The position numbers and the translations under genes were made by a program. DNA of 17,392 nt from a virus (Duplodnaviria > Heunggongvirae > Uroviricota > Caudoviricetes), in the IMG/VR virus record IMGVR_UViG_2778261152_000002, positions 1 to 17,392 of that record. One strand, given 5' to 3'. Positions 1 through 17,392 of this stretch are shown piece after piece; positions within the stretch are counted from its first letter, which is position 1, and every line of letters begins with the position of its first letter. The notes under the pieces were generated by a model. That model was not told the DNA's origin and ran no database searches. It was given only the letters and a program-made list of their open reading frames with translations.

Positions 1-6
1 GAGGCA

Positions 7-222
7 TTATTCACCTCTCGCAGCCTTGCGCTTATCTTCTTTAATCTTGAAATAAAGGTTTGTCAGGTACGTCAGCAAGCCAAATACCAGACTACCCAGC
101 ACACCTATTGCCGCCCACTGTGAGGGCGTGACTTTATCGAGCAACTGTAAAAACCAGTACCCGGCACTACCTGCTGAGGTGCCATAGGCGACACCCGTTG
201 TTAACTTATCCATGGATTTCAT
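7..222 (-). CDS. S: Class II holin (pinholin), phage 21 S-like, with dual start
   Basis: 71 aa beginning MKSMDK (Met1 and Met4 give the antiholin/holin dual-start motif), two hydrophobic segments, charged C-terminus [16 protein letters not shown] at 220-222, SD GAGGTGG upstream, TAA at 7-9. Close to phage 21 S as recalled from memory. Confidence 0.85.
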
Positions 223-257
223 AACCCCACCTCGCAGATGCGGGTGCTGTGTAATGG

Positions 258-282
258 AAATAAAAAGGCCACCTACCTGGCC
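258..282 (-). terminator. Candidate intrinsic terminator between methyltransferase and holin
   Basis: Minus-strand RNA folds GGCCA-GGUAGG-UGGCC (plus coordinates 267-282) followed by UUUUUAUUU (plus A-run 258-266). Lies 6 nt after the methyltransferase stop. Confidence 0.35.
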
Positions 283-288
283 ACCAGA

Positions 289-1341
289 TTATTTCCCCAC
301 CAGCTCGTTTATCTCTTTCACTGTCTGGTTAAACCGCTCTGACTCAAGCTCAACACCTAAGGCCCGACGCCCCAGCGCCATTGCTGCTTTTATTGTGGAA
401 CCGGATCCCATAAAAAAATCAGCAACCAGATCACCAGGTCGACTACTGGCATTGATTATTTGCCGGAGCATATCCGCAGGTTTCTCACACGGATGTTTAC
501 CCGGGTAGAACTGAACGGGTTTATGCATCCAGACATCGGTATAAGGCACGGAGACTGATACGGAGAAATAGCGCCGGAGAGATTTAAACTCATCCAGCAA
601 TTCAGAATATTTGCGATTCAGTGAATCATAAGATGCCACCAGCTGGTGGTGTGGTTGTTCCAGTTGTTGTTCCTGAAACTTCTCTGCCGCTATACGGGAA
701 AACAGTGCCTGTAACTTCCGATAGTCAGCCTCATTCGGCAACTGCCACTGACTGGCACCAAACCAGTGGGAAACCATATTTTTCTTACCTGTGGCTTCGG
801 CAATTTGTTTTGCCGTTATACCCAGTTCGGCACGAGCATCCCTGAAATACGATATCAGCGGTGCCATTATGTGCTGTTTGAGTTCCCTTTCTTTTGCCGC
901 ATAGCAGTCACTTTTGCCGCGATATGGCCCCTGGTAATGTTCAGCAAACAGAACGCGCTCTGTGGCAGGAAAATATGCGCGCAGACTTTCTTTATTACAC
1001 CCATTCCAACGTCCGGACGGCTTCGCCCAGATGATATGGTTAAGCACGTTGAAACGTTCACGCATCATGATCTCAATATCAGATGCCAGGCGATGCCCAC
1101 AGAACAGGTAAAGGCTTCCGGCAGGCTTTAACACCCGCCAGAACTGGGCCAGACAGTGGTCCAGCCACTTAAGGTAATCTTCGTCCCCTTTCCACTGATT
1201 GTCCCAGCCGTTGGGTTTCACCTTGAAGTACGGCGGATCGGTAACAATCAGGTCAATGGAATCATCAGGCAGGGACTGAATAAAATGCAGGCAATCAGCG
1301 TTGATTAAATCAACACTGTTTATTTTTACAGTATTTTTCAT
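289..1341 (-). CDS. DNA methyltransferase, beta-class (DPPY before FxGSG), probably N6-adenine
   Basis: 350 aa. Motif IV DPPY near the N-terminus (IVTDPPYF), SAM-binding FFMGSGS near the C-terminus. ATG at 1339-1341, TAA at 289-291. Confidence 0.85.
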   Translation of the reverse strand: MKNTVKINSVDLINADCLHFIQSLPDDSIDLIVTDPPYFKVKPNGWDNQWKGDEDYLKWLDHCLAQFWRVLKPAGSLYLFCGHRLASDIEIMMRERFNVLNHIIWAKPSGRWNGCNKESLRAYFPATERVLFAEHYQGPYRGKSDCYAAKERELKQHIMAPLISYFRDARAELGITAKQIAEATGKKNMVSHWFGASQWQLPNEADYRKLQALFSRIAAEKFQEQQLEQPHHQLVASYDSLNRKYSELLDEFKSLRRYFSVSVSVPYTDVWMHKPVQFYPGKHPCEKPADMLRQIINASSRPGDLVADFFMGSGSTIKAAMALGRRALGVELESERFNQTVKEINELVGK

Positions 1342-1491
1342 GGATCAGTAAGCGTAACTCTGGTAGGCTCACTCTGCTTTTGCGCTAAAGCAGTGGGCCG
1401 TGGTTCGCTTGTGACCAGTAAGCATGAGCGAATGGCTGGCAGGTGCTACCAACACCCACCAGCCGCCCATTTTCACAGCAGGAAACCGCCA

Positions 1492-1719
1492 TTACTGGCA
1501 GCGTCTGAATTTATTCCCGTACCCGCCGTTATCCTTCGCCAGACCCGCCAGAACTAACTGAGTCAGTATTAACTGGCACCGGGCTTCGCTTACTCCGGTA
1601 GTTCTCGTCATCATGCGTGGCGTTACCCACTTGTCAGCAGGTAAGAAATGAAGGACTGCGGCGGCGGTTTCTGTCATATCTTGCTGTTTTAGCATGTCTT
1701 TTTCCCTTCTGGTTAACAT
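1492..1719 (-). CDS. Hypothetical small phage protein (possible winged-helix DNA-binding)
   Basis: 75-aa ORF with ATG at 1717-1719. An internal ATG at 1693-1695 (Met9) has a better SD (GAAGGGA) and may be the true start. No family recognised. Confidence 0.5.
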   Translation of the reverse strand: MLTRREKDMLKQQDMTETAAAVLHFLPADKWVTPRMMTRTTGVSEARCQLILTQLVLAGLAKDNGGYGNKFRRCQ

Positions 1720-1817
1720 GACATACCAATAACTCTTGTCTAAAAAGCCAGCAAGATAAAAAGTCAGTATTCACGACCACCAGCGTGTTTACTGTACTGC
1801 ACCAAGTTTACAGGTAC

Positions 1818-1840
1818 AAAAAAACCGCTCAGCGGCGGGT
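1818..1840 (-). terminator. Candidate intrinsic terminator (possible tR'-like element)
   Basis: Minus-strand RNA: G-CCGC-UGA-GCGG-U stem (4 GC pairs plus a G.U) followed by seven U (plus A-run 1818-1824). Short stem, so weak call. Confidence 0.3.
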
Positions 1841-1955
1841 TTAAGTTGTGTGGCGAAGTAACCACTCTTAACACGATACAATAGTTTTTGCGTACGCGTT
1901 AGTGGTTATGTAAACTTTCTCCATATAAAAACAGCAAAGAAGCGGATATTTTGAA

Positions 1956-2984
1956 ATGGCTACACTGGACGCATTCAGTAGAGTAATAACTCATCATACT
2001 ATTACGATCGATACACAATACCGTACACAGAAAATTGATGATAGCATCAGATCGAACTGTGTTTGCCCGGTACCAACAATGCGTGAACTTGCTTCTAAAA
2101 TAGTACGTTGTAAAGCAATGATGCACAGTTATGAAAAAGGAGACTTAGTTTTAACTTTGCAAGATGTAATCTTCTTATCAAACAGAGCCGATAAAAAACC
2201 CAGCCATCTTGGTCTTTTAATTAATGCTGTAGATAAAAATGGAAGCACTACTGTGTTAAAAAACATTAATACAGATGTTCGTACCGAAATATCACCAAAA
2301 CATGAGGAAGGTGAAGGTTACGAAGTTTCTTCTCATATGATTATTTCTCTAGACGGAAATATGCGAACCTATGACATGAGTTTTATGCCAATACCAGGAG
2401 TTTCCACAGCAAAAATAAATGGTTTCCTGAATAAAGTTCTCTTTAACGTAGCCAAAGATAATGAAGATATCTTTTCATGTAACACTTTAACAAATGAAGT
2501 ATCAAGTTTAACAAAGAAAAAAATAAAAGTATTATACAAGCCAGTCTTTGATATATCTGGAAAGTTAGATGAAGATTTGTTCAATAAAATAAATAAAGAA
2601 GGACTTTCTGATGTCGTTTTGGTAAAGAATGAATACAGAACTATTAATGCGCCAGATGTTAACGCGGCTATTATTCCTAAAGAAAGTACTTTACGCTTAG
2701 TACCAAACCATGGCCCCAACAATGTCCTTGGATGGATAAAATCTGTCTCAAACTTCTTTAAAGAAGATAAAAATGGAGGTTATGACTTAATAAAAATAAA
2801 ATTCAAAGAGCCAGAGACAGGATTCACAAGACAAGTTGACCTTCAAACTTCAAATGTAAGGCTCGATGGGCTGGAAAAAACATTTATCAAAAAGAGTGTA
2901 ATAAATGGTTTTTCTTCGCGCTTAAAGGATTCTTATGATAGTATTAACATGGAGTTTGTGAATAAGATTATCGAGGTCATGTGA
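1956..2984 (+). CDS. Hypothetical soluble protein, first gene of AT-rich two-gene cassette
   Basis: 342-aa ORF, ATG 1956, TGA 2982-2984. K/N/D/I-rich, no TM segments, no nucleotide-binding or catalytic motif I can recognise. Markedly lower G+C than flanking phage genes. Opposite strand to the surrounding late operon. Confidence 0.7.
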   Translation: MATLDAFSRVITHHTITIDTQYRTQKIDDSIRSNCVCPVPTMRELASKIVRCKAMMHSYEKGDLVLTLQDVIFLSNRADKKPSHLGLLINAVDKNGSTTVLKNINTDVRTEISPKHEEGEGYEVSSHMIISLDGNMRTYDMSFMPIPGVSTAKINGFLNKVLFNVAKDNEDIFSCNTLTNEVSSLTKKKIKVLYKPVFDISGKLDEDLFNKINKEGLSDVVLVKNEYRTINAPDVNAAIIPKESTLRLVPNHGPNNVLGWIKSVSNFFKEDKNGGYDLIKIKFKEPETGFTRQVDLQTSNVRLDGLEKTFIKKSVINGFSSRLKDSYDSINMEFVNKIIEVM

Positions 2985-2991
2985 GGCTAAT

Positions 2992-3567
2992 ATGATTAGT
3001 ATATTTTCACATTTATTTAGACCGTTTGGTTACCTTTTCATTAAGGGAATTAGTGGTAAGTGCGCATACGATTTTTATGCACCTGCCGGGCTTGCTGTGA
3101 TTTCTTTTTTTTACTTTTATTTATTTAAAATACCCACATCAGACCTACTAAAAGATGGCGGCTTTATTAAGTCTATATCTGGATTTGTATCAAATCTGCC
3201 AGGTTTTTATATAGCAGCTCTTGCAGCAATAGCCACTTTCAACAGAGAACAAATTGACTACCCTCTGATAGGAACTAATGGCACGCCTTTTATTAAAATT
3301 ACACGAACAAAAGAAAATGGTAGAATTGTTGACACTCAAGAGAAACTTACCAGAAGATTATTTCTGTGCATGTTATTTTCATTTTTAACTGCCCTCAGCA
3401 TATGCATAGTGATTTTCAACGCTTTTATCACACCACTAATAAACATACTGAATAATGATATAGCAAACTGGTGCTATATCATTATCTTTTTATTCCTTAC
3501 ATGGCAAATGCTTGTTTCAACATTTTTTGGACTATACTATCTTGGTGATAGGATTCACATTAATTAA
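2992..3567 (+). CDS. Hypothetical integral membrane protein (about 4 TM helices), second gene of cassette
   Basis: 191 aa. ATG 2992 is 7 nt after the upstream stop, with SD GAGG overlapping that stop (translational coupling). Four hydrophobic stretches (about residues 22-45, 62-85, 125-150, 160-185) separated by a charged loop. Confidence 0.7.
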   Translation: MISIFSHLFRPFGYLFIKGISGKCAYDFYAPAGLAVISFFYFYLFKIPTSDLLKDGGFIKSISGFVSNLPGFYIAALAAIATFNREQIDYPLIGTNGTPFIKITRTKENGRIVDTQEKLTRRLFLCMLFSFLTALSICIVIFNAFITPLINILNNDIANWCYIIIFLFLTWQMLVSTFFGLYYLGDRIHIN

Positions 3568-3922
3568 CTACCATAATGGGGTTTATAGTTATTATTACAC
3601 CGCTGATAAACCCCATGGCAGTCTGCAATTCCTTCCTAATTGTGCCATCTGAACATCTTCTCTTCTTGGCAATAGTGCGTAATGAGATACCAATAACAAA
3701 GTGAGCTATGATCAGCTCATATTCCTCTGGTTTATACTTTCGCAACCGAGCCACACAACCGTCTATCATGATGCCTTCATCATCATCACACTGGAGACGT
3801 GACTTTTTACCGTGTGGTAAAAGTCCCTTGAAACCAGCCGCTATCGGCTGCCAGTCCACACCACTATTTTCTGCTGCAGCCCATGCTCCCCAGCGGTCCA
3901 ATACTTCATACATATCACGCAT
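3560..3922 (-). CDS. Late-gene antitermination protein Q (small Q family, QuuD-like)
   Basis: Protein MRDMYEVLDRWGAWAAA...IAAGFKGL...SRLQCDDDEG...CSDG matches the about 125-aa Q-like antiterminator pattern as recalled. The track start at 3937 is TTG; ATG at 3920-3922 with SD GGAGA is preferred. Confidence 0.7.
   Translation of the reverse strand: MRDMYEVLDRWGAWAAAENSGVDWQPIAAGFKGLLPHGKKSRLQCDDDEGIMIDGCVARLRKYKPEEYELIIAHFVIGISLRTIAKKRRCSDGTIRKELQTAMGFISGVIITINPIMVVN
3576..3616. repeat. Perfect 11-bp inverted repeat ATGGGGTTTAT / ATAAACCCCAT with 19-bp spacer
   Basis: Read directly: 3576-3586 and 3606-3616 are exact reverse complements. Sits at the 3' junction of the cassette, inside the C-terminal codons of Q. 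Confidence 0.6.
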
Positions 3923-3939
3923 CAACTTTCTCCACAAAA

Positions 3940-4935
3940 TCAGGCCAGCACGCCAATTGCCAGCGCACGATCGATAAAACGAAATATCAGCTCCAGCTGG
4001 GAGCCATACTTCTCTTCAAATGCCACGGTATCCGCATGCAGCTCGTCGTGATGCTTTCTGCACAAAGGCAACACAAAAAGGTCATGCGCTTTTGTTCCCA
4101 TTCCACCCTGACCGTGACCTATCAGGTGGTGGGGATCATCAGCGGGCTTTCCACAACATGCACACGGCTGTGTCTTAACCCAGCGCGTGTACTTTTCATT
4201 AACCCAGCGGCGACGTTTTGGGCGTAACATAAAAGACTCCGGCGACTCCGGATCCACTTTCAGCGCCAGCACCTTTTTCGCTTTATCCTGGATGATACTG
4301 GTGGCAGGAACCGAAGGCACAAGGTCACTTTCCCGGGTGACAGACGGCACAACAGGCTTCGGTAATCTCAGTGCCTTACGGGCTGCACTTTCCGGTAAGG
4401 CATCCGCCAGGTCATTACGAACCAGCCACCAGCACAGTTCCGGCATTGTCACAACGTGACTGTCATCAAAACCGAGATCCCGACGCACGACAGACAACAC
4501 CCAGCGGGCACAGTTATCCGTTGCCATTGATTCCAGCCGTTCCGTGAATTGATCGCGCAGCTGGTTATCGCAGTGCCAGCACAGACGGATTGCGCCCGGA
4601 GCATGTCGCATTGTGGTCATGTTCTCGCTGTGCCAGTCGGAATGAGGCCACTGACAGCCTTTTTCACGAAGTAACCAGCTTTCAAGACATTCCACGCCAC
4701 CAGCACGACGGATCACTGCCTCATTACGGAACACGGCCCGAACGGCAGGATCATCCGCCAGTGGTTGTGATGCCGCCGGAACGGCACCACTGGCAAAAGA
4801 TGAATAACGTTCCGGCTCAGGCTCCAGCAGGACACGCCCCTGCATAAACAGGGGCATCAGCTCTGAACCAGGCCTGAACAATACGATCCCCATACGCGGG
4901 GCAATTTCAGGGGTCAGTAGTGCTCTCACGATCAC
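3940..4935 (-). CDS. DUF968-like phage protein with C-terminal HNH/zinc-finger-like motif
   Basis: 331-aa ORF (GTG start at 4935, 1 nt after the upstream stop). C-terminus CACCGKPADDPHHLIGHGQGG...LPLCRKHHDELH has paired Cys and His-His typical of HNH-like folds. DUF968 assignment is from memory of Qin prophage YdfU-like proteins. Confidence 0.65.
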   Translation of the reverse strand: MIVRALLTPEIAPRMGIVLFRPGSELMPLFMQGRVLLEPEPERYSSFASGAVPAASQPLADDPAVRAVFRNEAVIRRAGGVECLESWLLREKGCQWPHSDWHSENMTTMRHAPGAIRLCWHCDNQLRDQFTERLESMATDNCARWVLSVVRRDLGFDDSHVVTMPELCWWLVRNDLADALPESAARKALRLPKPVVPSVTRESDLVPSVPATSIIQDKAKKVLALKVDPESPESFMLRPKRRRWVNEKYTRWVKTQPCACCGKPADDPHHLIGHGQGGMGTKAHDLFVLPLCRKHHDELHADTVAFEEKYGSQLELIFRFIDRALAIGVLA

Positions 4936-4936
4936 C

Positions 4937-5746
4937 TCAATGAACGGTATCGAGCAGCTTTAACAGCTCAGGGAATCGGGATTCGAAGAAATGCGGCTGC
5001 GTCTCGCGCGGATTTGCAGGACTGGTGATGTTCTTGCCGAACATGCAGCCTTTCGCCGTCAGCGACCAGAATTTTTTGATGTTGTTAATCGCGGTACGGC
5101 TGTATCGTTCGCGTTGTTCAACGATCCCCAGCTTCACCATCTGGTGATATGCCTGATTAGCCGTCAGGCGGATACCATACTGTTTCAGCAGTGCACTCAG
5201 TGACAGCGTGGGACGGCTTGAGCCATCAGTCGCGTCAGCAGGAGCATCAATGGCATAGCGCGGTGCCAGATTCGGTAAGCCAACAGCCTCCTGGAGTTTC
5301 TGACAGGCACCAAGCACTGAAGAGTTAGACAGGTTTAATTCCCGGCGCATAAAGTCCAGCAGAATCACGCCAGCCTGCATCTTGTCAGCAGCCTGTCCGG
5401 ATAACTTTTCCGGCGCGCTGGTTACCATATCGAAAGTACGGATCACCTTCAGATGGAATGACGGGCTGATCCACATTGCATAGGCATACACCAGTTCCTT
5501 ACAGACATACGTTCCCCGTTCATTTCCCCCATGAATCACACTCACCGGGTCAACACCCAAATTCTGGGTGTTGATTAATTCATGAACAAGATCAACAGTT
5601 TGTTGGCTGGAAAGAAACTTTCCTGGCTCCTTGGTTCTGGCATTTGCACCAGATGCTACTGCTGCGCGATGCAGATCGTTCAGGCTGTAACGCTCATAAG
5701 CATCACGACGAACTTCAATACCATCAATGACCATCAGATTATTCAT
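4937..5746 (-). CDS. KilA-N domain protein (antirepressor-like)
   Basis: 269 aa. N-terminus MVIDGIEVRRDAYERYSLNDLHRAA fits the KilA-N pattern. ATG 5744-5746 with SD AGGAGA 8 nt upstream. Confidence 0.7.
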   Translation of the reverse strand: MNNLMVIDGIEVRRDAYERYSLNDLHRAAVASGANARTKEPGKFLSSQQTVDLVHELINTQNLGVDPVSVIHGGNERGTYVCKELVYAYAMWISPSFHLKVIRTFDMVTSAPEKLSGQAADKMQAGVILLDFMRRELNLSNSSVLGACQKLQEAVGLPNLAPRYAIDAPADATDGSSRPTLSLSALLKQYGIRLTANQAYHQMVKLGIVEQRERYSRTAINNIKKFWSLTAKGCMFGKNITSPANPRETQPHFFESRFPELLKLLDTVH

Positions 5747-5765
5747 ACTTCGTTTCTCCTCTTAA

Positions 5766-6155
5766 TCAGGCAGCTGCACCCGCCGTTTTCTCGTACTTAC
5801 TGATAGTGATCTCGACCTTCCCTTCCGGGATAACCGGTCCCCACTCCACCAGCATTCTTTTCACCTGACTGTCGTCTTCCCACACCCCCGCGTGGGTCAG
5901 GGCGTCAAACAGCGCCTTGTTATAGTTGTCCAGATCGCGGATCCTGTTATCCGGAGGAAACAACACGATCTCCACTGAAGCAGGTGCCGACGTTGGTTTC
6001 GGCAGACGACGTAACTGCTCAACTATTGCTGCGCACGCCGCGCTCTGGAATTTTCGCCCCGCCGCGCTTATCAGGCTCTTACCAGCAAACGCCCCTTTGT
6101 TGGGGTGTCGCCAGTACGTGTTCACGCTGGGCGGAAAAGGCAGGATCAGCTTCAT
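5766..6155 (-). CDS. rusA: Holliday junction resolvase RusA
   Basis: 129 aa with PPSVNTYWRH and RDLDNYNKALFDALTHAGVWEDDSQV, matching the RusA catalytic region. ATGA overlap with the upstream gene. Confidence 0.85.
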   Translation of the reverse strand: MKLILPFPPSVNTYWRHPNKGAFAGKSLISAAGRKFQSAACAAIVEQLRRLPKPTSAPASVEIVLFPPDNRIRDLDNYNKALFDALTHAGVWEDDSQVKRMLVEWGPVIPEGKVEITISKYEKTAGAAA

Positions 6156-6478
6156 ACTTTCAGGCCCCTCTCATGTAACCAGTGGGTTGCACGCAGCCTT
6201 GCGTTTTCCTCACCGGCAAGCAGTGAGCGGATAATCCCGACCGCCTCGCTGTCGTCGTCCTTCACCGCGGTATGAAGCGTGATGCCCCGGGCCACGCCAC
6301 GCTTTATCGTGATGACGCCTTTTTTCTCCAGTGCGCGAAGATGCTCCACCGCTGCATTCACTGAACGGTATCCCAGCATGGTTGCCACCTCCTGATTGGT
6401 TGGCGGGAAGCCACGTTCTTTCTGATAAGAAATCAGCATATCCAGCACCTGCTGCTGGCATTGAGTTAACGTCGTCAT
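6152..6478 (-). CDS. LexA-type winged-helix DNA-binding protein (no peptidase domain)
   Basis: 108 aa. N-terminus LTQCQQQVLDMLISYQKERGFPPTNQEVATMLGYRSVNAAVEHLRALEKKGVI closely parallels the LexA N-terminal DNA-binding domain. SD AGGGAGA, ATG 6476-6478. Confidence 0.6.
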   Translation of the reverse strand: MTTLTQCQQQVLDMLISYQKERGFPPTNQEVATMLGYRSVNAAVEHLRALEKKGVITIKRGVARGITLHTAVKDDDSEAVGIIRSLLAGEENARLRATHWLHERGLKV

Positions 6479-7161
6479 GCCGCCATCTCCCTGACCAGTT
6501 TTTCTGCCTGCTGGCGAACCTGCGCCAGAAAGGCCTCACCACATGCCTCAAGTTCATAGCGCCCGATGTAGCTGATTGCCGGTCCCTTCCAGGTCTTGTC
6601 GAAAACAGCAATAGCACCAGCGAAGAAAGCGCCTGTCGGCACCTGCTTCTCATCCTTCGGGATAAACCAGGCAGGCAGTTCAAAACCAATACGCCCGCGA
6701 ATAAAAGCAATATGATCTGCATCTTCCGGCCACCACACTTCGCTGGTGGCAGCTTTGATCAGGAAAACATAGCGCCCGCCTTTATCACGCATGGCACTGG
6801 CATGCTTCATGATGTAACGCATGCCGGTGATGTATTGCCCCTCATGCTGACTGGCGCGGCTGTATGGGGGATTACCAAAGGCAGCACCTTTAAGCTCCGC
6901 AAGGCATTCTGACCAGTCATGCGCCAGCGCGTTGTCTTCCGCCGTGTAATACGCAGCACATTTGGCGTTATCACCGTCAGTAAACAGATCCAGAACAAAC
7001 GGGCCAAACAGAGTGTTAATTCCCCAGAAAATGTTGTCCGGCGTGCGCCACTGATCGCCCACTTCCTTCAGTTCATGGGCTGGTTTGTTCCGCAGTTCCG
7101 CCAGCGCCTGGCAATATTTATTACTCATTAAGCCCCCACGTAATTCCCTGAGAGATACCAC
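6475..7161 (-). CDS. Phage Dam-like N6-adenine DNA methyltransferase
   Basis: FGNPPYS (NPPY) motif. The track start at 7161 is GTG; ATG at 7126-7128 overlaps the upstream TAA by 1 nt (TAATG) and is the likelier start, giving 217 aa. Confidence 0.75.
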   Translation of the reverse strand: MVSLRELRGGLMSNKYCQALAELRNKPAHELKEVGDQWRTPDNIFWGINTLFGPFVLDLFTDGDNAKCAAYYTAEDNALAHDWSECLAELKGAAFGNPPYSRASQHEGQYITGMRYIMKHASAMRDKGGRYVFLIKAATSEVWWPEDADHIAFIRGRIGFELPAWFIPKDEKQVPTGAFFAGAIAVFDKTWKGPAISYIGRYELEACGEAFLAQVRQQAEKLVREMAA

Positions 7162-7616
7162 TCTTCACCTGATGCAGCCCGCTTACTGCTTTTCCGTAAA
7201 CACCGTTCACGACGCGCCAGAAAATTGTTTCGTTCTGGCTGGGAGTGGCTTTCACGGAATGCCGCCATCCACACCGTTGCAGCACGACGGTATAAGCCCC
7301 TGGACTCCAGTTCTTCCGCCTGGCGGGTCAGGCACAAAATCACCCGCGGGTCGTTAGTGCCGACATAGAAATTGCGCACAGGTCTGGTTTCACGAACTGG
7401 TTGTGGTTCCGGATCCTGCGCTCTCTCAGTCAGGCGCGGGAAATGTCTGTGTGTATCTCCTTCACAACGGTGAGCCACACGCCCACTCTGACGTAACTTG
7501 CTTGCTGACTGCAGAACGCGCTGCCGTGAGTAACCTGCAAAAGCATCCGCAATGTCTCCGGAAGTACAGCCCGGATGGGCTTCAATGAATTTCTGAACGT
7601 CATTCAAAAGACTCAT
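7128..7616 (-). CDS. Hypothetical regulator with PerC-like C-terminal motif
   Basis: ORF to 7622 starts with GTG; ATG at 7614-7616 with SD GGGGTG is preferred. C-terminal LESRGLYRRAATVWMAAF...RRERC resembles the PerC-family signature as recalled. Confidence 0.5.
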   Translation of the reverse strand: MSLLNDVQKFIEAHPGCTSGDIADAFAGYSRQRVLQSASKLRQSGRVAHRCEGDTHRHFPRLTERAQDPEPQPVRETRPVRNFYVGTNDPRVILCLTRQAEELESRGLYRRAATVWMAAFRESHSQPERNNFLARRERCLRKSSKRAASGEEWYLSGNYVGA

Positions 7617-7618
7617 GA

Positions 7619-8560
7619 TCACCCCCTGAATCCTGCCGGGATCTGGCTGTAGTCCACGTTGTCGTAACTGGCTTTGAAGTACGGGTCTTCACGTTTTTCT
7701 GTGTGCGTGCTGACGGACGGCGATAAGCGCAGGGAAAGCTCATCCCATTTTTCCCGCAACTTCGACGGGCTGAGCACGTTACGGCACCAGAACGGATCGC
7801 GGCTGACGCGGCTGTACATCTCGCAGATTTGTTTGTGAGTACGACCATCCTGCACACACATCAGGCGAATTTCGTTTGCCCATGCTGTCCAGTTCGGTTC
7901 TTTGGGACGAACCACCTCGCCGTCACATTCGGCGGCCTGCTCGTACAGGGCAATGATTTTTTTCCAGAGCCACTGTGCGCAGGTCAAATCATCCTGCGTT
8001 CCCCACTGGCGCTTTTTAGGGCTGAATACAACCGCATCAGGATGGCGAGTTAAAAAATCCTGTTCAGCCGTCTGCGTGTCCGGTTGCGAAGCGTCCGGAC
8101 GAGAAGGTTTTTTATCTGACGGATCATGTTTTGATTTTACTGACGGATCCCCGCCAGATTCTGACGGGTGAAAACCCGCTTTTTTGCCAGATTTCGACGC
8201 ATCAAATTTTGACGGGTCAGATTTTGATGCGTCAGATTTTGACGGGTCAGAATCTGACAGTTGAGAAAATGCCGCTGCCTGAAGCTTCGCAACGTTAAGC
8301 TGATAAACATTCGACGCATTGCGGTTACCCTGGCGACGCGCCTTACGCGTTAACCAGCCTTCTGCTTCCAGCCGTGCGATAGCCGTCCTGACGGTACTCA
8401 TCCCCGCGCCAATCTGACGGGCAATAGTTTCAATTGATGGCCAGCACACACCTTCGTCATTACTGAAATCAGCCAGGCGGGCCATAATTGCCACGCTGGA
8501 TAATTTCATGCCTGATGCAGCGCAACCATCCCATACATAGCCGGTTAATTTAGTGCTCAT
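7619..8560 (-). CDS. Replication initiator (O-like): N-terminal HTH, iteron-encoded linker, DnaT-like C-terminal domain
   Basis: 313 aa. N-terminal winged-helix-like segment, central pentapeptide repeats (DPSKS DASKS DPSKF DASKS) encoded by the 15-bp DNA repeats, C-terminus ending ...YSQIPAGFRG like the C-terminus of primosomal protein DnaT (recalled). ATG 8558-8560 with SD GAGG. Confidence 0.8.
   Translation of the reverse strand: MSTKLTGYVWDGCAASGMKLSSVAIMARLADFSNDEGVCWPSIETIARQIGAGMSTVRTAIARLEAEGWLTRKARRQGNRNASNVYQLNVAKLQAAAFSQLSDSDPSKSDASKSDPSKFDASKSGKKAGFHPSESGGDPSVKSKHDPSDKKPSRPDASQPDTQTAEQDFLTRHPDAVVFSPKKRQWGTQDDLTCAQWLWKKIIALYEQAAECDGEVVRPKEPNWTAWANEIRLMCVQDGRTHKQICEMYSRVSRDPFWCRNVLSPSKLREKWDELSLRLSPSVSTHTEKREDPYFKASYDNVDYSQIPAGFRG
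8114..8260. repeat. Iteron array (candidate replication origin) inside the initiator gene
   Basis: At least five tandem 15-bp units (CCAGATTTCGACGCA, TCAAATTTTGACGGG, TCAGATTTTGATGCG, TCAGATTTTGACGGG, TCAGAATCTGACAG) at 8187-8260, plus degenerate copies at 8114-8170. Analogous to lambda ori inside gene O. Confidence 0.6.
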
Positions 8561-8569
8561 GACCGACCT

Positions 8570-8908
8570 CTATTTCCCTGAATTTACGACGAAACTGTTC
8601 GAGCGGGCTGAAGCACTCATGCTCATAGCCTTCGCGGAGGTAGATAACTCGTTGTGTTTCCGGCTCCCAACGAATGACTCTGACGGGCACTCCGTAGTGA
8701 TCTTTGAACCAGCGGTTAACTTGTCGCAAAGGACTGTCTCCTTCTGCCGGTTGAAATCACCCACAGCCCACTCAGCAAAGCTGTGGGTTACAATTTCCCT
8801 GTCACCTGGTACATTAACTGCATAGCAATACTCCACCTTCGCTTTTCCACCCGGTACAGGAAGCGCAATCAGTTGCGAGCGACGGTAGTGTGTTGTTAAA
8901 CTGTTCAT
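8570..8908 (-). CDS. Hypothetical phage protein between cII-like gene and initiator; possible frameshift
   Basis: ATG 8906-8908 overlaps the upstream stop. The N-terminal 53 aa look protein-like; the rest of this frame is Ser-rich and low complexity, while an alternative frame open from about 8746 to a TAA at 8550-8552 encodes a more protein-like tail. Confidence 0.45.
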
Positions 8909-9513
8909 GCGTTAGTTTCTCCACAGTCACGACACGCCACGGCGCCCGGAGCTGCACACTCGCGGGCGTCATTACTTTCTGAAATGCAAAAGATTTTGTA
9001 GACCAGTGCTGCATGCTCCTGCAGCTTCGAAATTGAGAGATACAGCTCGTCGTTAATTGCTGTCTTCTCATGCGGTTCCACCACACCGTCTTCGATTGCC
9101 GAACGAATCTGTCTGGAATAACTGCCAATTTGTTCAATGACTTCCAGCAGGCGCTGGTTAATATCGGCGTTGTCCACATCCTCGACGTCAGGAAGAGACA
9201 CAAAGACGCCATTTGCAGACTGCGCCACAGCGTCAGCAATGAAGTGAGTTCCACCAGCACGTTGCAAAATCATTGCCCATCCCAGCGGGAAAATCTGATC
9301 GCCATCGGCACGAAGGCGGTTAAATAATGCGTTTTCTGTTACATCCAGCCAGTCAGCTGCTTCAGCGTAACCACCCGGCAACGCTGCGATAGTTTTTCTG
9401 ACAGCTTTCACGTACCACTCAGGCTGTTTTTCTACTTTCCAGTGATGCTTACCCACGGTTAGCCTCATCGTTCTGTGGTTTCTGTTAATCGATTTATCCA
9501 TTAGATTTTTCAT
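8905..9513 (-). CDS. cII-position regulatory protein (CII/CP76- or YdaT-like), start uncertain
   Basis: ORF is open from a GTG at 9570; candidate ATG starts at 9513, 9501 and 9468, none with a strong SD. C-terminus has a C-x7-C-x7-C-x2-C cluster. Function inferred mainly from position downstream of cro. Confidence 0.5.
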
Positions 9514-9694
9514 AAAGCTCAGGTTTAAATGGCAACCGTCCGCAAGTTCTATATGCAGCTTCTGCTGCACGTCCTTTTGGAATTAACTGGCCCGGACGGT
9601 TTCGCCACTGATAAACGGCTTCAGTTGTTATGCCGAAAAAAGCAGCAACTTTCTCAATACTGCCGAAGTAGCTTTCGATATCGTCAGTTGTCAT
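9494..9694 (-). CDS. cro: Cro-like HTH repressor
   Basis: 66 aa, divergent from cI. HTH-like segment AAFFGITTEAVYQWRN. ATG 9692-9694 with SD GGAGG. Confidence 0.7.
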   Translation of the reverse strand: MTTDDIESYFGSIEKVAAFFGITTEAVYQWRNRPGQLIPKGRAAEAAYRTCGRLPFKPELYEKSNG

Positions 9695-9791
9695 ACGCCC
9701 TCCAAGCTAAGTTTTATTAGATGCTAATTACAAATCTATCTTTGGTCAATAAAAACTAAGATTACTTAGCAATTAAAGAAATGGTGCTCCT
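9695..9791. promoter_or_regulatory. Divergent cro/cI operator-promoter region
   Basis: 97-bp AT-rich interval between divergent cro and cI. Near-palindrome CTAAG-ATTA-CTTAG at 9756-9769 and CTAAG at 9707-9711 with partial inverted partners. Confidence 0.5.
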
Positions 9792-10418
9792 ATGGAAACG
9801 GTTGGTCAGCGTATAAAAGCTCTGAGAAGAGTTACCGGAACGTCCCAGAAAGAATTGGGTAAATTTTGTGGAGTAAGCGACGTTGCTGTGGGGTACTGGG
9901 AGAAAGACATCAATACCCCTGGTGGGGAAGCACTTTCGAAATTAGCGAAGTTCTTCAATACGTCAATAGATTACATTCTTTATGGTGCTGAGTTTGAAGG
10001 CAAACTCGTCACAAACATGCGCAGAGTTCCTGTAATATCGTGGGTTCAGGCTGGGCAGTTTACTGAGTGCAGGGCAGCAGAAGTGTTTAGTGAAGTGGAC
10101 AAGTGGGTAGATACATCATTAAAGATTGGTGATAACTCATTTGCATTAGAGGTTAAAGGTGACTCCATGACTAACCCTAATGGCCTCCCAACAATACCAG
10201 AAGGCGCAACAGTGATTGTAGATCCAGATGCAGAACCTCGTCATGGAAAAATAGTCATCGCTCGACTTGATGGAACAAACGAAGCTACAGTAAAAAAATT
10301 AGTCATCGATGGCCCTCAAAAGTTTTTAGTGCCATTAAATCCTCGGTATCCCAACATCCCTATCAATGGTAATTGCCTTATCATTGGTGTAGTCAAAGGA
10401 GTTCAATACGAACTCTAA
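9792..10418 (+). CDS. cI: CI-type prophage repressor (XRE HTH plus S24 LexA-like peptidase)
   Basis: 208 aa. N-terminal HTH (QKELGKFCGVSDVAVGYWEKD), Ala-Gly cleavage site in VQAGQF, catalytic Ser in GDSM and Lys in ATVKKL. Confidence 0.9.
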   Translation: METVGQRIKALRRVTGTSQKELGKFCGVSDVAVGYWEKDINTPGGEALSKLAKFFNTSIDYILYGAEFEGKLVTNMRRVPVISWVQAGQFTECRAAEVFSEVDKWVDTSLKIGDNSFALEVKGDSMTNPNGLPTIPEGATVIVDPDAEPRHGKIVIARLDGTNEATVKKLVIDGPQKFLVPLNPRYPNIPINGNCLIIGVVKGVQYEL

Positions 10419-10580
10419 GACCTCTCTTCTCTAACTAAGGCACCGAACTAAGAAAAGTTTGGTGTTTTCTCTTGCCACAATAACTAAGTTAAGTTAGATT
10501 TTATATCAAAGATAACGAACAGGCAGGACGCCCACGAAGTAGCCGCCTGGGGCATATGAAGTCCAGGATGATTCGTTAGC

Positions 10581-10606
10581 AACAAAAAAGCGCCCTACAG
10601 GACGCT
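10581..10606 (-). terminator. Candidate intrinsic terminator (minus-strand transcripts)
   Basis: Minus-strand RNA: AGCGUCC-UGUA-GGGCGCU (7-bp stem including one G.U) followed by UUUUUUGUU. The plus-strand version has a C-A mismatch and a poor U tract. Confidence 0.4.
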
Positions 10607-10665
10607 TAGCTCTTTAACAATCTGGTCCCCATCAACAAGTAACTGATAACTTGAGGAGATGTGAA

Positions 10666-10872
10666 ATGCACAAAACAGAACCCAAAATCGTCGCGCCTGG
10701 CTACACAGATGAGGAAATTTATGAGTGGATGACAAAGAAGCTGGCAGCTATAAACCAGCTTCGTGAAGTGCTGTCTTATCGACAGGAAACAATAGACTCC
10801 TTAAAAAAACTGGATCAGGAAATCACGGTTTTATCACAGGATGTTACTTTAGATATTGTGCAGACAAATTAG
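10666..10872 (+). CDS. Hypothetical small coiled-coil protein (immunity-region insert)
   Basis: The track ORF starts at a TTG at 10651; ATG at 10666 with strong SD GAGGAG is preferred, giving 68 aa. Heptad-like charged/hydrophobic pattern. Its 3' end overlaps the convergent 144-aa gene by 29 nt. Confidence 0.45.
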   Translation: MHKTEPKIVAPGYTDEEIYEWMTKKLAAINQLREVLSYRQETIDSLKKLDQEITVLSQDVTLDIVQTN

Positions 10873-11278
10873 GATCCCATTCATTTTCGTCAAAATCATC
10901 AAAGTGATGAATTTGTGATCTCCAGTCTCGATAATCTAAAAATTTCTGGGCGGTTACGCTTATTTTATCAAGTGTGAGTTCATCCTGAATTGAAAGAAGA
11001 AGTTCATCAAATTTCATCTCATTAATCTGTTTTGGCATCCAGTGATGCTTCATCAGAATAAGGTGAACCAGAGCCTTTTTCCCATTCAACTGATTATAGG
11101 GAGTGCCGAATTTCTTCCGGTGCTCATGTAAGACAAGGTCCAAAAGAGTAAGTAATGTTGCCCTTGATTCAACTTTGCTTATTTCGACTGATGACACTAC
11201 CCCACTGATTTCAATGCCCCGATACTTTCCAACATTTTCACAGTGGGATTTGTACAGCGTATAGATATTACCGGACAT
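10844..11278 (-). CDS. Hypothetical 144-aa protein in the immunity region (rex/sieB position)
   Basis: ATG 11276-11278 with SD AAAGGAAAAG. AT-rich gene. No TM segments. Contains R-x6-H (RDWRSQIH), too degenerate to call a HEPN domain. Confidence 0.55.
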   Translation of the reverse strand: MSGNIYTLYKSHCENVGKYRGIEISGVVSSVEISKVESRATLLTLLDLVLHEHRKKFGTPYNQLNGKKALVHLILMKHHWMPKQINEMKFDELLLSIQDELTLDKISVTAQKFLDYRDWRSQIHHFDDFDENEWDPNLSAQYLK

Positions 11279-11430
11279 TTCTTTTCCTTTTGCGTTGTTG
11301 GGGATAACCAGATTAACCGAATCCTTGTTGTTGGGGAATAACTAGGTCCACCTCGCCTGATGTGGCTAAAAGCAGGCACATAACAGCTAAGTATTTTCAA
11401 CCAGAGAGAATCCTTAGCGTTGTGGTGAAT
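11279..11430. promoter_or_regulatory. Candidate OL/PL-type control region
   Basis: Position between the immunity insert and the early-left genes. Direct repeats GTTGTTGGGGATAAC (11294-11308) and GTTGTTGGGGAATAAC (11327-11342). CTAAG (11387-11391) and CTTAG (11413-11417) form an inverted pair. No confident -35/-10 identified. Confidence 0.3.
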
Positions 11431-11564
11431 GCGGCTCAGCGCACGCGGGTTAAGGTTGAGGCTGACAGTCGACCTTCTGTGGATACCCACCCGCCTGGTG
11501 TGCAACCTTCGCCAGGCACCGGGAGGCACCCGGCACCACAACTTTATGCTGTGTGTAGTCTTGG

Positions 11565-11609
11565 CGGTACCAGCTTGTACCCTTGCTTCCGGCTGGTACC
11601 GTCCTTTTT
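11565..11609 (+). terminator. Candidate intrinsic terminator in the early-left leader
   Basis: Plus-strand hairpin CGGTACCAGC (11565-11574) / GCTGGTACCG (11592-11601), 10-bp stem with 17-nt loop, then TCC and TTTTT (11605-11609). Confidence 0.35.
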
Positions 11610-11746
11610 ACAAAACAGAGAAGAGCATCACCGGACGACGGGCTCATAACCCAATCCATCCGGGCGGCAGTCACCGCAGGTGTTCTTCTCTGTTTTGTGG
11701 AGAAACTAACCGACCTTGCAGGGTCGATATGATGAGGAGCAGCAAA

Positions 11747-12109
11747 ATGGCTAGCGAACGCAGTACTGATGTGCAGGCATTTATCGGGGAGCTGGACGGC
11801 GGCGTATTTGAAACCAAAATCGGCGCAGTTCTCAGTGAAGTCGCTTCCGGTGTGATGAACACGAAAACCAAAGGTAAGGTCTCGCTCAACCTGGAAATCG
11901 AACCGTTTGATGAGAACCGAGTGAAAATCAAACACAAACTCTCATATGTTCGCCCGACTAACCGCGGGAAAATTTCCGAAGAAGACACCACCGAAACGCC
12001 GATGTATGTCAATCGCGGTGGTCGCCTGACTATTCTGCAGGAAGACCAGGGACAGTTACTGACTCTTGCCGGTGAACCTGACGGAAAACTCCGCGCAGCA
12101 GGTCGTTAA
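11747..12109 (+). CDS. Hypothetical early protein, YfdP-like (120 aa)
   Basis: The track ORF from 11429 has a Pro/Arg-rich, improbable N-terminus; ATG at 11747 with SD GAGGAG gives a 120-aa product. YfdP-like call rests on size and on neighbourhood with the YfdQ/R/S/T-like genes. Confidence 0.6.
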   Translation: MASERSTDVQAFIGELDGGVFETKIGAVLSEVASGVMNTKTKGKVSLNLEIEPFDENRVKIKHKLSYVRPTNRGKISEEDTTETPMYVNRGGRLTILQEDQGQLLTLAGEPDGKLRAAGR

Positions 12110-12174
12110 TATCGTTTTTAATTAACTGATTATTTATCTCATCACTGAATATCTTTATATAGTGAGGACTTATT

Positions 12175-12999
12175 ATGTCTCAGAACTTAGACGCAACCGC
12201 AATTAATCAAATCCATGCCCTTATTTCTGCTCAGGGTGTTAATGAAATTATCAGTAAGATTGGTGCCGATGCTGTGGCATTGCCTGAGAATTTCCGCATT
12301 CATGATCTGGAAAAATTTAATTTAAATCGCTTCCGTTTCCGTGGTGCGCTTTCCACTGCCAGCATCGATGACTTTACCCGTTATTCTAAAGATCTTGCAG
12401 ATGAAGGCACCCGCTGCTTTATCGATGCTGATAATATGCGTGCCGTCAGTGTGCTTAACCTGGGTACTATTGATGAACCAGGTCACGCAGATAACACCGC
12501 CACACTCAAACTGAAAAAGACAGCACCGTTCTCTGCTCTGTTGTCTGTTAACGGCGAGCGTAACTCCCAGAAGTCACTAGCAGAATGGATTGAAGACTGG
12601 GCCGACTATCTTGTGGGCTTTGATGCTAATGGTGACGCTATTCAGGCAACAAAAGCGGCTGCGGCTGTCCGTAAAATCACGATTGAAGCAAACCAGACCG
12701 CTGATTTTGAAGATAATGACTTCAGCGGCAAACGCTCCCTGATGGAGTCTGTCGAAGCGAAGACCAAAGACATTATGCCAGTGGCATTTGAATTTAAATG
12801 CGTTCCGTTTGAAGGTCTGAAAGAACGTCCGTTTAAATTACGCCTCAGTATTATCACTGGCGATCGTCCTGTACTGGTTCTGCGCATTATTCAGCTGGAG
12901 GCGGTGCAGGAAGAAATGGCTAACGAATTTCGTGATCTGCTTGTTGAGAAATTCAAGGACAGCAAAGTAGAAACCTTTATTGGTACTTTCACCGCCTGA
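12175..12999 (+). CDS. yfdQ: YfdQ-like protein (DUF2303 family as recalled)
   Basis: 274-aa ORF with SD GTGAGGA. Length and position match E. coli YfdQ; family assignment is from memory. Confidence 0.7.
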
Positions 13000-13126
13000 T
13001 TTCATTACTGCAAATGCCCCTGCGGGGGCATTTATGGAAACGTAATTTACTCAATAATCGCCGGATGGTGAGGGATTCTTTTTGCCAGAATTCAGCGCGG
13101 TGCAGCGCATATACGTGGAGAACAAA

Positions 13127-13663
13127 ATGTCATTTATTAAAACTTTTTCCGGGAAGCATTTTTATTATGACAGGATAAATAAAGACGACATCGATATTAA
13201 CGATATCGCGGTTTCCCTTTCAAATATCTGTCGCTTTGCCGGTCATCTTTCGCACTTCTACAGCGTCGCCCAACATGCGGTTCTTTGCAGCCAGCTGGTG
13301 CCGCAGGAATTTGCTTTTGAAGCGTTAATGCATGATGCAACAGAAGCGTATTGCCAGGACATTCCCGCACCACTGAAACGCCTTCTTCCTGACTATAAAC
13401 AAATGGAAGAAAAAATAGACGCCGTAATCCGTGAGAAATACGGGTTACCCCCAGTTATGAGTACGCCCGTGAAATATGCCGATCTCATCATGCTGGCAAC
13501 CGAACGCCGCGATCTCGGGCTTGATGATGGCTCTTTCTGGCCTGTACTGGAAGGTATCCCGGCAACAGAGATGTTCAACGTGATTCCACTGGCACCGGGC
13601 CATGCCTACGGGATGTTTATGGAACGCTTTAACGAGTTATCGGAGTTACGCAAATGCGCATGA
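13127..13663 (+). CDS. yfdR: HD-domain phosphohydrolase, YfdR-like
   Basis: The track start at 13082 is TTG; ATG at 13127 with SD GGAGA gives 178 aa. Metal-binding signature H...HD present (VAQHAV ... ALMHDATEAY). Confidence 0.8.
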   Translation: MSFIKTFSGKHFYYDRINKDDIDINDIAVSLSNICRFAGHLSHFYSVAQHAVLCSQLVPQEFAFEALMHDATEAYCQDIPAPLKRLLPDYKQMEEKIDAVIREKYGLPPVMSTPVKYADLIMLATERRDLGLDDGSFWPVLEGIPATEMFNVIPLAPGHAYGMFMERFNELSELRKCA

Positions 13664-14016
13664 ATGTTTTCGAAATGGAAGGGTTTCTTCGTGGGAGATG
13701 TGTACCGCGAGATCTGAAAGTAAATGAAACAGATGCTGAATACCTGGTGCGTAAATTCGATGCGCTTGAAGCTAAATGTGCAGCACAGGAAAACAAAGTA
13801 ATACCAGTGTCAACTGAACTGCCACCAGCAAATGAAAGTGTTTTGTTATTCGATGCTAACGGAGAAGGCTGGCTAATTGGCTGGCGTTCTCTCTGGTACA
13901 CCTGGGGACAAAAAGAAACCGGAGAATGGCAGTGGACATTTCAGGTCGGGGACCTTGAAAACGTCAATATCACTCACTGGGCAGTAATGCCAAAAGCACC
14001 GGAGGCTGGAGCATAA
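13654..14016 (+). CDS. DUF551-like protein (YfdS-like)
   Basis: 120 aa. Trp-rich C-terminal half ending ITHWAVMPKAPE, reminiscent of DUF551. Overlaps upstream stop; stop overlaps next start (TAATG). Confidence 0.6.
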   Translation: MRMNVFEMEGFLRGRCVPRDLKVNETDAEYLVRKFDALEAKCAAQENKVIPVSTELPPANESVLLFDANGEGWLIGWRSLWYTWGQKETGEWQWTFQVGDLENVNITHWAVMPKAPEAGA

Positions 14017-14321
14017 TGACCACTTTTACCGACAAAGAACTGATTAAAGAAATTAAAGAGCGTATCAGCAGCCTTGACGTGCGAGACGATATTGAGCGCC
14101 GTGCTTATGAAATCGCACTCCTATCTCTGGAAGTAGAACCAGATGAACGCGAAGCTTATGAATTATTCATGGAAAAGCGTTTCGGTGACTTAGTAGATCG
14201 TCGGAGAGCAAAAAACGGCGATAACGAATACATGGCATGGGATATGACTCTCGGTTGGATCGTCTGGCAGCAACGAGCTGGTATCCATTTTTCAACAATG
14301 TCACAGCAAGAGGTGAAATAA
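14016..14321 (+). CDS. Hypothetical early protein (YfdT-like, 101 aa)
   Basis: 101-aa ORF, SD GGAGG, TAATG overlaps with both neighbours. No motif recognised. Confidence 0.55.
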   Translation: MTTFTDKELIKEIKERISSLDVRDDIERRAYEIALLSLEVEPDEREAYELFMEKRFGDLVDRRRAKNGDNEYMAWDMTLGWIVWQQRAGIHFSTMSQQEVK

Positions 14322-14671
14322 TGGAGCCATACAGCCTCACACTCGATGAGGCCTGTCATTTTCTCAAGATATCCAGACCGACTGCCATTAACTGGATACG
14401 CACAGGGCGTCTTCAGGCAACACGCAAAGATCCCACTAAGAATAAATCTCCTTACCTCACAACACGACAAGCCTGCATTGCGGCTCTTCAGTCTCCGCTG
14501 CATACTGTCCAGGTGAGCGCGGGTGATGGCATAACAGAGGAAAGAAAATGTCACTCTTCCGCAGAGGTGAAATATGGTACGCCAGTTTCACATTGCCGAA
14601 CGGTAAAAGATTTAAACAGTCTCTTGGAACAAAGGACAAAAGGCAGGCGACAGAACTCCATGACAAGCTAA
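14321..14671 (+). CDS. xis: Excisionase (Xis), P22-like
   Basis: ATG 14321 with SD AGAGGTG gives 116 aa. N-terminal HTH-like segment [26 protein letters not shown]. Sits immediately upstream of int. The 3' end overlaps int by about 120 nt in another frame, so the true stop is uncertain. Confidence 0.55.
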
Positions 14672-15711: not shown

Positions 15712-15725
15712 CTTATTGATTTAAA

Positions 15726-17344: not shown

Positions 17345-17367
17345 AAAAACAAAAAACCCCGAATACC

Positions 17368-17392
17368 ATGAGGAAAATGGTTTATCATTTAT
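17368..17392 (+). CDS. Possible 5' end of the serotype-specific glucosyltransferase gene, truncated by window edge
   Basis: ATG at 17368 (or 17377) about 25 nt after the gtrB stop. In gtr operons the type-specific transferase follows gtrB. Only about 8 codons visible. Confidence 0.25.

Follow-up and report, generated by a model that had tools for sequence, protein, structure and literature searches.

The closest described relative of the replication module considered here is that of phage lambda, in which the initiator gene O lies downstream of cro and cII in the early-right operon, the iterons form four spaced 19-base-pair (bp) units inside gene O itself, and the O protein's C-terminal domain is the part pairing with P, the product of a dedicated loader gene beside O. 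Besides this arrangement, Weigel and Seitz reportedly described in 2006 a group of 'initiator-solo' phage replication modules, in which the initiator gene contains the origin and is linked to neither a helicase gene nor a loader gene. A second point of comparison is the E. coli primosomal protein DnaT. According to a 2026 cryo-electron microscopy study, DnaT contacts PriA through its folded C-terminal domain and PriB through its acidic linker (PMC13377028), and the route by which it recruits DnaB/DnaC is stated to be unknown both there and in the 2014 DnaT structure paper (PMC4132743); the deposited mature DnaT model ends at residue 154. Here, we analysed a stretch of 17,392 nucleotides from a Caudoviricetes virus (IMG/VR record IMGVR_UViG_2778261152_000002, positions 1 to 17,392; the whole stretch is hereafter called the window), in which one minus-strand gene appears to bring features of both systems together, as its product resembles lambda O in its globular C-terminal domain and DnaT in its last residues.

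Our overall interpretation, to which we would give an even chance, is that this gene encodes a lambda-type initiator along with its origin, and that a DnaT-mimicking tail on the protein recruits a DnaC-type loader, in this case that of the host. Its parts are not equally firm. A lambda-type initiator with a predicted intragenic origin is very probable, and the tail likely acts as a functional adaptor for a host factor, while the proposal that its target is DnaC or the DnaB-DnaC complex, rather than PriA/PriB or something else, falls somewhat short of an even bet. In its general form the idea is more tentative: a tail of ~10-20 residues ending in ...IPxGFRG might serve as a movable peptide by which DnaC-type loaders or DnaB-DnaC are recruited, and which phages, prophages and plasmids have grafted onto unrelated origin-binding proteins, thereby dispensing with PriA, PriB and DnaT and, in modules such as that of the window, with any loader gene of their own. 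The parts of the initiator gene on which the argument leans are the following.

7619-8560, minus strand: lambda-O-type initiator gene, 313 amino acids plus stop (open reading frame and translation)
8276-8560, minus strand: N-terminal winged-helix DNA-binding domain, about residues 1-95; Pfam HTH_36 covers residues 23-70 (8351-8494)
8111-8262, minus strand: presumed origin, with tandem 15-bp iterons at 8188-8262 and three spaced CCGTCAG copies at 8116-8167
7712-8065, minus strand: globular C-terminal domain, about residues 166-283, a homologue of the lambda O C-terminal domain
7622-7711, minus strand: disordered C-terminal tail, residues 284-313, the last nine of which (SQIPAGFRG) are encoded by 7622-7648

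The globular C-terminal domain aligns collinearly with that of lambda O at 39% identity (E 1e-19 by tblastn; E 5e-26 by blastp in a small set) and is common to 2676 representative protein clusters, and PHROG 391, 'replication initiation O-like', matches the initiator with E 9e-136. An AlphaFold2 model of the C-terminal 155 residues, whose input alignment held homologues found with the C-terminal half and mostly gene fragments, has a predicted local distance difference test (pLDDT) score of 82 overall and above 90 in the globular core, followed by a disordered tail of ~30 residues (pLDDT 47-64). It is in this tail that DnaT is recognised. The protein ends in ...NVDYSQIPAGFRG, and SQIPAGFRG is identical at 8 of 9 positions to the SQIPPGFRG of E. 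coli DnaT (BLASTP), the reference for the latter agreeing in full with PDB chain 9zbt_D and with the MG1655 dnaT gene. When the full initiator was compared with DnaT by BLASTP, no similarity beyond the tail was detected, neither the N-terminal domain nor the acidic linker of DnaT being found, and a search of the C-terminal half for a DnaT domain returned nothing in Pfam even at E<=10, nor by profile and fold comparison. Aligned by hhalign against the DnaT family (20-member alignment), the profile of the initiator family matched over 30 tail columns only, with a probability of 93% and E 3e-7. By these comparisons the similarity to DnaT is one of the tail, with 9 residues here and ~20-30 at family-profile level, and of no folded domain; because the tail alone is shared, the initiator stands outside the DnaT family. 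An earlier note on this DNA, made from the sequence alone, had recognised the QIPAGFRG end as the C-terminal signature of DnaT, and rightly so. Its 'DnaT-like C-terminal domain' has to be given up in favour of a lambda-O-like globular domain with a DnaT-like disordered tail, and the alignment with DnaT that it suggested accordingly succeeds in the tail and fails, by Pfam, profile and fold, in the folded domain.

Enterobacterial DnaT proteins end in an almost invariant R-D-x-N-x-x-S-x-P-D-x-x-I-P-x-G-F-R-G (more narrowly, ...RDxNxxSEPDxxIPPGFRG). Many phage and plasmid initiators have the same motif at their end, and some of them match it more fully than the window protein does, e.g. with RDVNAISEPDNTIPEGFRG or RCVNHISEPDTEIPPGFRG, and relatives of the initiator match the whole DnaT tail of ~19 residues. 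The tail is found in at least four C-terminal contexts, namely after the lambda-O-like domain (the window and mEp460_ev081), in SfV orf39, in the group of YdaU, Gifsy-2, POCJ13 and Tritos, and behind a true DnaT domain (SPN1S). Among the open-access papers searched, none was found that treats the IPxGFRG tail as a motif or ties it to a loader type; the SfIV paper merely lists the replication module.

The case for a loader as partner of the tail comes from the genes that follow it. A scan of viral contigs for related loci gave 80 near-identical loci, and diversity was therefore judged from a collection with one genome per species, in which the tails and downstream genes were read at 71 loci encoding a lambda-O-like domain. 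P genes (40 clear matches and one weak) follow non-DnaT tails, most of which are tryptophan-rich and either of the lambda type, ...NTDWIYGV.., or of the related form ...HWNSxEAWENxL. Where the tail is of the DnaT type or a GFR variant (20 loci), P is always missing; three of these loci carry a DnaC-like gene directly downstream and 17 no loader. Classing by regular expression put many tryptophan-type tails into 'other', and the conclusion rests on the counts of DnaT-type tails versus P, taken from related enterobacterial prophages that are phylogenetically non-independent. The pattern holds across differing N-terminal domains, C-terminal domains and host genera, with a DnaT-type tail paired with a DnaC-like gene in Rac (YdaU-YdaV), Gifsy-2 and POCJ13, and a lambda-type tail paired with P in lambda, Mulock and Klebsiella phage 5. 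In the reciprocal test, comprising 80 viral contigs with a YdaV-type DnaC-like gene, the upstream product ended in IPxGFRG at all 74 assessable loci, on at least 18 different N-termini, and in E. coli dnaT is itself located immediately upstream of dnaC. Finally, the initiator of an Erwinia prophage (L100) is collinear with that of the window, its N-terminus being 65% and its C-terminal domain 71% identical, and it ends in HWNSPEAWENTL and is followed by P. By its gene content, this prophage is a clean natural swap of tail and loader. Taken together these loci resemble a natural experiment, in which the same scaffold bears either a lambda-type tail and P, or a DnaT-type tail that is accompanied either by a DnaC-like gene or by no loader, and the pattern points to a short peptide as selector of the helicase-loading route.

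The tail could of course bind some host replication factor other than the loader, such as DnaB itself, SSB-interacting pockets or the beta clamp. Many plasmid initiators are generally known to contact DnaB directly, and, compared by eye, ...PD-x-x-IP-x-GF is loosely like the acidic, IPF-ending tip of SSB and the Q-x-x-x-x-F clamp motifs. However, a DnaB-binding tail would suit any loader and thus be compatible with P, yet tail and P never co-occur, and for this reason the loader is favoured over DnaB as the target of the tail. Moreover, the Q position varies in phage tails (E, T, A, S, H), unlike in clamp-binding motifs, and the tail ends in F-R-G, whereas SSB ends in a C-terminal phenylalanine. 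We therefore regard such a target as unlikely.

Another possibility, put forward in the earlier note, is that the initiator, having opened the origin, recruits the PriA-PriB-DnaT restart primosome of the host, which would load DnaB through DnaC. DnaT is indeed the sole host protein sharing the tail, a phage loader is absent, and the PriA primosome does serve Mu, phiX174 and ColE1-type replicons (PMC4129139). Yet the window protein has neither the folded domain by which DnaT docks to PriA nor the acidic linker by which it docks to PriB, and because these parts are absent we favour direct recruitment of the loader over recruitment of the primosome. Bearing DnaT's own tail would rather suggest that the initiator replaces DnaT than that it recruits it, and the co-occurrence of the tail with DnaC-type loaders and its exclusion of P are most simply explained if the tail contacts the loader. 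What stands of the earlier proposal is the lack of a loader of the phage's own; as the tail tracks DnaC-type loaders, recruitment of PriA-PriB-DnaT is less likely than recruitment of such a loader, and taken by itself we consider it rather improbable.

That the phage brings no loader of its own is supported by a tblastn search (E<1e-3) with seven references, comprising two P proteins (one of them from lambda), DnaC of E. coli, three DnaC-like proteins from phages, and DnaB, which found no homologue in the window or in the complete 41-kb genome of SfII; used as a control, the same search recovered loaders in 44 other loci. Nor does the annotation of SfII, a viable phage with a complete genome and 98.6% identical, list genes for P, DnaC or DnaB. 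We conclude that a phage-encoded loader is most probably absent. The module fits the loader-less 'initiator-solo' class, for which our literature search found neither a mechanism of helicase delivery nor any use of the tail as a predictor. The genes surrounding the initiator are those listed below.

7128-7616, minus strand: yfdN-like PerC-family gene, 162 amino acids (Pfam PerC E 8e-9; PHROG 1324, 'transcriptional activator')
6475-7161, minus strand: phage-type Dam methylase gene, two genes 3' of the initiator
8570-8908, minus strand: gene of 112 amino acids 5' of the initiator, DUF4222 in RefSeq and PHROG 1170 (unknown function), between the cII-like gene and the initiator; no match in a Pfam search
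8905-9570, minus strand: cII-like CP76 gene of the lambdoid early-right operon
9494-9694, minus strand: cro, in the same operon
9792-10418, plus strand: cI, divergent from the early-right operon

The next gene downstream, named PerC family transcriptional regulator (yfdN) in RefSeq, begins with an ATG at 7616 directly past the initiator stop codon (TGAtcATG) and is thus translationally coupled to the initiator. Its 162-residue product matches Pfam PerC (PF06069) at residues 100-151 with 36.1 bits against a cut-off of 22.6, in agreement with the earlier note, which had called the gene PerC-like rather than a loader of the P, DnaC or DnaB type and had seen no loader gene downstream; the latter now extends to the entire window and to SfII. 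One might nevertheless suspect that YfdN, the DUF4222 protein or another small early gene is a functional analogue of P, the more so as yfdN is coupled to the initiator and travels with the tail across a mosaic junction into SfV and Stx2c phages. Against this, YfdN is a PerC-family or helix-turn-helix regulator by Pfam, NCBIfam and PHROGs, and other DnaT-tailed, loader-less modules have no yfdN, the gene being replaced by LygF (mEp460_ev081), by unrelated genes (Tritos, SPN1S), by DUF1627 or by nothing. A hidden loader therefore appears quite improbable and, going by its family and its distribution, the yfdN-like gene is neither a helicase loader nor a constant partner of the tail.

The junction just mentioned is apparent from SfV and many Stx2c and Stx2a phages, which share with the window only the last ~25-33 initiator codons, yfdN and dam. 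Since the sharing is limited to these, a mosaic recombination junction must lie just upstream of the tail, at ~7695 (around codon 289), and with a junction there the DnaT-type tail moves along with the genes that follow it to an initiator whose body is different. SfV orf39 and the 'replication protein' of the Stx2c phage are likewise loader-less, are followed by the same yfdN-dam pair and have their last 24 residues identical to those of the window protein, although in SfV orf39 the region between HTH_36 and the tail differs, as do the repeats; the tail was therefore exchanged by recombination.

Turning to the presumed origin, Tandem Repeats Finder places at 8188-8251 an array whose period is 15 (4.3 copies, 81% matches) or 30 (2.1 copies, 88%), and a further repeat search extended it to 8262 and added diverged copies at 8111-8125, 8135-8149 and 8152-8174. 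With up to three mismatches, the iteron consensus TCTGACCCGTCAAAA matches five times in the window, always inside 8159-8251, where 0.51 matches would be expected by chance over the 17.4 kb, and none of 200 shuffled windows reached five. The CCGTCAR core is found 15 times in the window versus 3.8 expected, five of the copies lying on the same strand at 8116-8245, and each 15-bp unit contains a TGAC-NN-GTCA dyad. Translated in frame, the array reads SDSDPSKSDASKSDPSKFDASKSGKK, and the peptide it encodes, SDSDPSKSDASKSDPSKFDASKS, is the low-complexity linker of the initiator. The tandem 15-bp repeats that the earlier note had seen translated as pentapeptides are hence real, and its placement of the origin inside the initiator gene, as in lambda, gains support from the homology to lambda O and from the position of the iterons, which occupy 33-48% of the gene length compared with 39-48% for the four annotated lambda iterons inside gene O.

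Might the repeats instead be no more than a Ser/Asp/Lys-rich coding linker with no role as origin? They do encode a disordered pentapeptide repeat, and linkers tolerate repeat expansion. However, a survey with exact 8-mers revealed that most relatives of the initiator carry a repeat array of their own at the same gene position. Two of them with similar N-termini (L097, 90% identical; L114, 77%) retain 15-bp TCTGAC..GTCAAAA arrays and the distal GATCCGTCAG copies, whereas L096, L098 and SfV orf39, whose N-termini are unrelated, have wholly different repeats. Because the type of repeat follows the N-terminal domain, the repeats are more plausibly initiator-binding sites than a mere coding linker. 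Relatives thus keep the DNA motif, and also its non-tandem copies lying in other reading contexts, where the N-terminal domain is the same, and have others in its place where that domain differs; in addition, the homologous lambda module has its proven origin at the same place, and one dyad per unit would suit a dimeric winged-helix protein. A role restricted to coding is consequently very doubtful. Within the protein, the presumed reader of the iterons is the N-terminal winged-helix domain, which matches Pfam HTH_36 (E 4e-11) and, weakly, DnaD_N and RP-C.

An arrangement in the style of iteron plasmids, in which the initiator and host DnaA, the latter bound to DnaA boxes, would together serve the origin, with DnaA recruiting DnaB-DnaC and the tail being incidental, is highly improbable as well. 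A single-gene initiator with iterons is, as general knowledge has it, the classic plasmid layout, but no DnaA box (TTWTNCACA) occurs within 5 kb of the repeats, the lone match in the window (at 2957) being below chance, and the strong conservation of the tail across unrelated initiator scaffolds argues for a function. A modestly A+T-rich stretch (G+C fraction 0.325 over the 40 bp at 8100-8139) lies on the promoter-distal side of the iterons, the side also used in lambda, and is no more than a weak candidate for an unwinding element. GATC is enriched neither at the origin nor in the window overall. Two GATC sites, at 8122-8125 and 8146-8149, abut two promoter-distal iteron-like copies (GATCCGTCAG), with the phage Dam gene two genes downstream, and the origin could be controlled by methylation of these sites.

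On this basis we propose that dimers of the N-terminal winged-helix domain would bind the dyad iterons at 8188-8262 and the spaced copies as far as ~8116, whereby an O-some-like complex could form and open the adjoining A+T-richer DNA, as lambda O does. Where the C-terminal domain of lambda O has a dedicated P gene next to it, the predicted window module has no phage loader, and its lambda-O-like domain is instead followed by the disordered tail with the DnaT-ending motif. This tail may act as an adaptor peptide for DnaC-type loaders that can be carried from one protein to another, in which case the initiator would be an origin-specific substitute for DnaT that brings host DnaB6-DnaC6 to the opened origin, with no need for a phage loader or for PriA, PriB and DnaT.

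Several points weigh against this proposal. The suggested link between tail and DnaC rests on the co-variation of gene neighbourhoods among related, non-independent prophages of enterobacteria, and the 2026 preprimosome paper proposes, by analogy with DnaA, that it is the N-terminal domain of DnaT which recruits DnaB/DnaC (PMC13377028). Furthermore, the window protein retains only the last 9 of the ~19 residues of the DnaT motif, with YDNVDY upstream in place of NxxSEPD, and the A+T-rich element is weak. Lastly, 'no loader' refers to homologues of loaders of three known types, and a loader that has gone unrecognised, for instance the DUF4222 gene or YfdN, is possible.

If the tail is indeed a recruitment peptide, the same peptide would provide the contact, missing so far, through which DnaT passes the restart primosome on to DnaB-DnaC, and the tails of the lambda O family would constitute a small 'code' for the choice of loader, the tryptophan-rich ones calling for P and the DnaT-type ones for DnaC. 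If the initiator stands in for DnaT, replication should need dnaC and not dnaT, contrary to what the earlier note had predicted. The tail-loader rule is in any case a new hypothesis that can be tested cheaply, and it bears on how DnaT engages DnaB/DnaC.

The relation to the known systems can now be stated more closely. In common with lambda, the window has a homologous C-terminal domain, iterons within the coding sequence of the initiator, where they fall into the linker that separates the DNA-binding from the C-terminal domain, and an initiator gene that follows cro and cII in an early-right operon of lambdoid type. In contrast to lambda, its N-terminus is of the HTH_36 type with no match to Phage_rep_O (PF04492), a family that does match lambda O, Gifsy-2 O and the protein of Klebsiella phage 5, its iterons are 15 bp long and in tandem, there is no P beside the initiator, and the protein ends in SQIPAGFRG instead of ...DLTNTDWIYGVDL. 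With E. coli DnaT it shares the extreme C-terminus, but not the three-helix DNA-binding domain, the N-terminal domain or the acidic linker, and it is a predicted sequence-specific origin binder rather than a fork factor depending on PriA/PriB. The modules of Rac (YdaU-YdaV), Gifsy-2 (O and a DnaC-like protein) and POCJ13 (gp16-gp17) are similar in placing initiators with a DnaT-type tail in lambdoid early operons; theirs, however, precede a phage DnaC-like loader, and their C-terminal globular regions are not of the lambda-O type. Salmonella phage SPN1S (epsilon15-like; L090, initiator at 2284-3099) is loader-less too and ends in IPPGFRG, whereas its initiator has a genuine DnaT domain (PF17948, E 4e-18), 63% identical to E. 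coli DnaT over 94 residues.

Some loci of the collection deserve separate mention. Modules made up of an initiator, a DnaC-like gene and DUF1627 (YdaW) occur in L108, L111, L115 and Rac (L088), and in L119 and L122 DUF1627 comes right after the DnaT-tailed initiator, the DnaC-like gene being absent; the comparison is consistent with the phage copy of DnaC being dispensable. On the same C-terminal domain, loci from Acerihabitans, Sodalis and Edwardsiella (L123-L125) bear the tail ...WNKIWAECSQRQ.. and have no recognisable loader downstream, and three from Aeromonas (L138, L144, L145) have the tail ...LNQMIQEGY, followed by a very diverged P-like gene (E ~1e-11 to 1e-15). Two contigs from records titled as Bacillota and Veillonella metagenome-assembled genomes (L101, L103) have LygF and an initiator of the E. 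coli mEp460 type, with 91-100% identity, and probably belong to enterobacterial phages and were mis-binned. The 'replication initiation proteins' of Serratia plasmids of 38-57 kb (H146-H149, H158) also carry a DnaT-type tail at their C-terminus, with 65-80% identity to the final 20 residues of DnaT (for H146, 51.6% over 31 residues), and these replicons may be phage-plasmids.

As judged from its genes, the locus is the replication module of a lambdoid prophage of the SfII/SfIV/CPS-53 type. Past the PerC-like gene, the minus strand continues with dam, a LexA DNA-binding-domain protein, RusA, KilA-N, DUF968/HNH and Q, and Shigella phages SfII and SfIV as well as Escherichia phages Kati and vB_EcoM-689R6 match the 2-kb stretch at 98-99% identity. 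The initiator module is commonplace and has been annotated already, being present in most E. coli genomes, in SfII, SfIV and SfV, and as a remnant in CPS-53 of K-12: some version of the initiator gene occurs in 3357 of 5426 complete E. coli genomes, and at least 80% of the gene in 1576. Phage records name it 'DNA replication protein O', 'primosomal protein' or 'Primosomal protein I', and RefSeq 'helix-turn-helix domain-containing protein', 'primosomal protein' or 'DNA replication protein O'. The name 'primosomal protein' in PHROG and RefSeq was considered as a sign of DnaT homology and rejected, PHROG 11896 matching residues 1-203 and not the tail; it overstates the kinship of the initiator to DnaT, and the database names are corrected here to that extent.

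Elsewhere in the window, a minus-strand gene at 289-1341 encodes an N6/N4 DNA methyltransferase of 350 residues (Pfam N6_N4_Mtase, E 2e-42; PADLOC MTase_II, E 3e-151), which is additional to the phage Dam gene and has no obvious restriction partner in the window. Between a DNA methylase gene and the Q antiterminator gene, two open reading frames are found on the opposite, plus strand (1956-2984, 342 amino acids; 2992-3567, 191 amino acids). A Pfam search gave no match for either, and they match components A (E 1e-31) and B (E 2e-54), respectively, of the PADLOC candidate defence system PDC-M53; the pair is probably a prophage-borne anti-phage moron.

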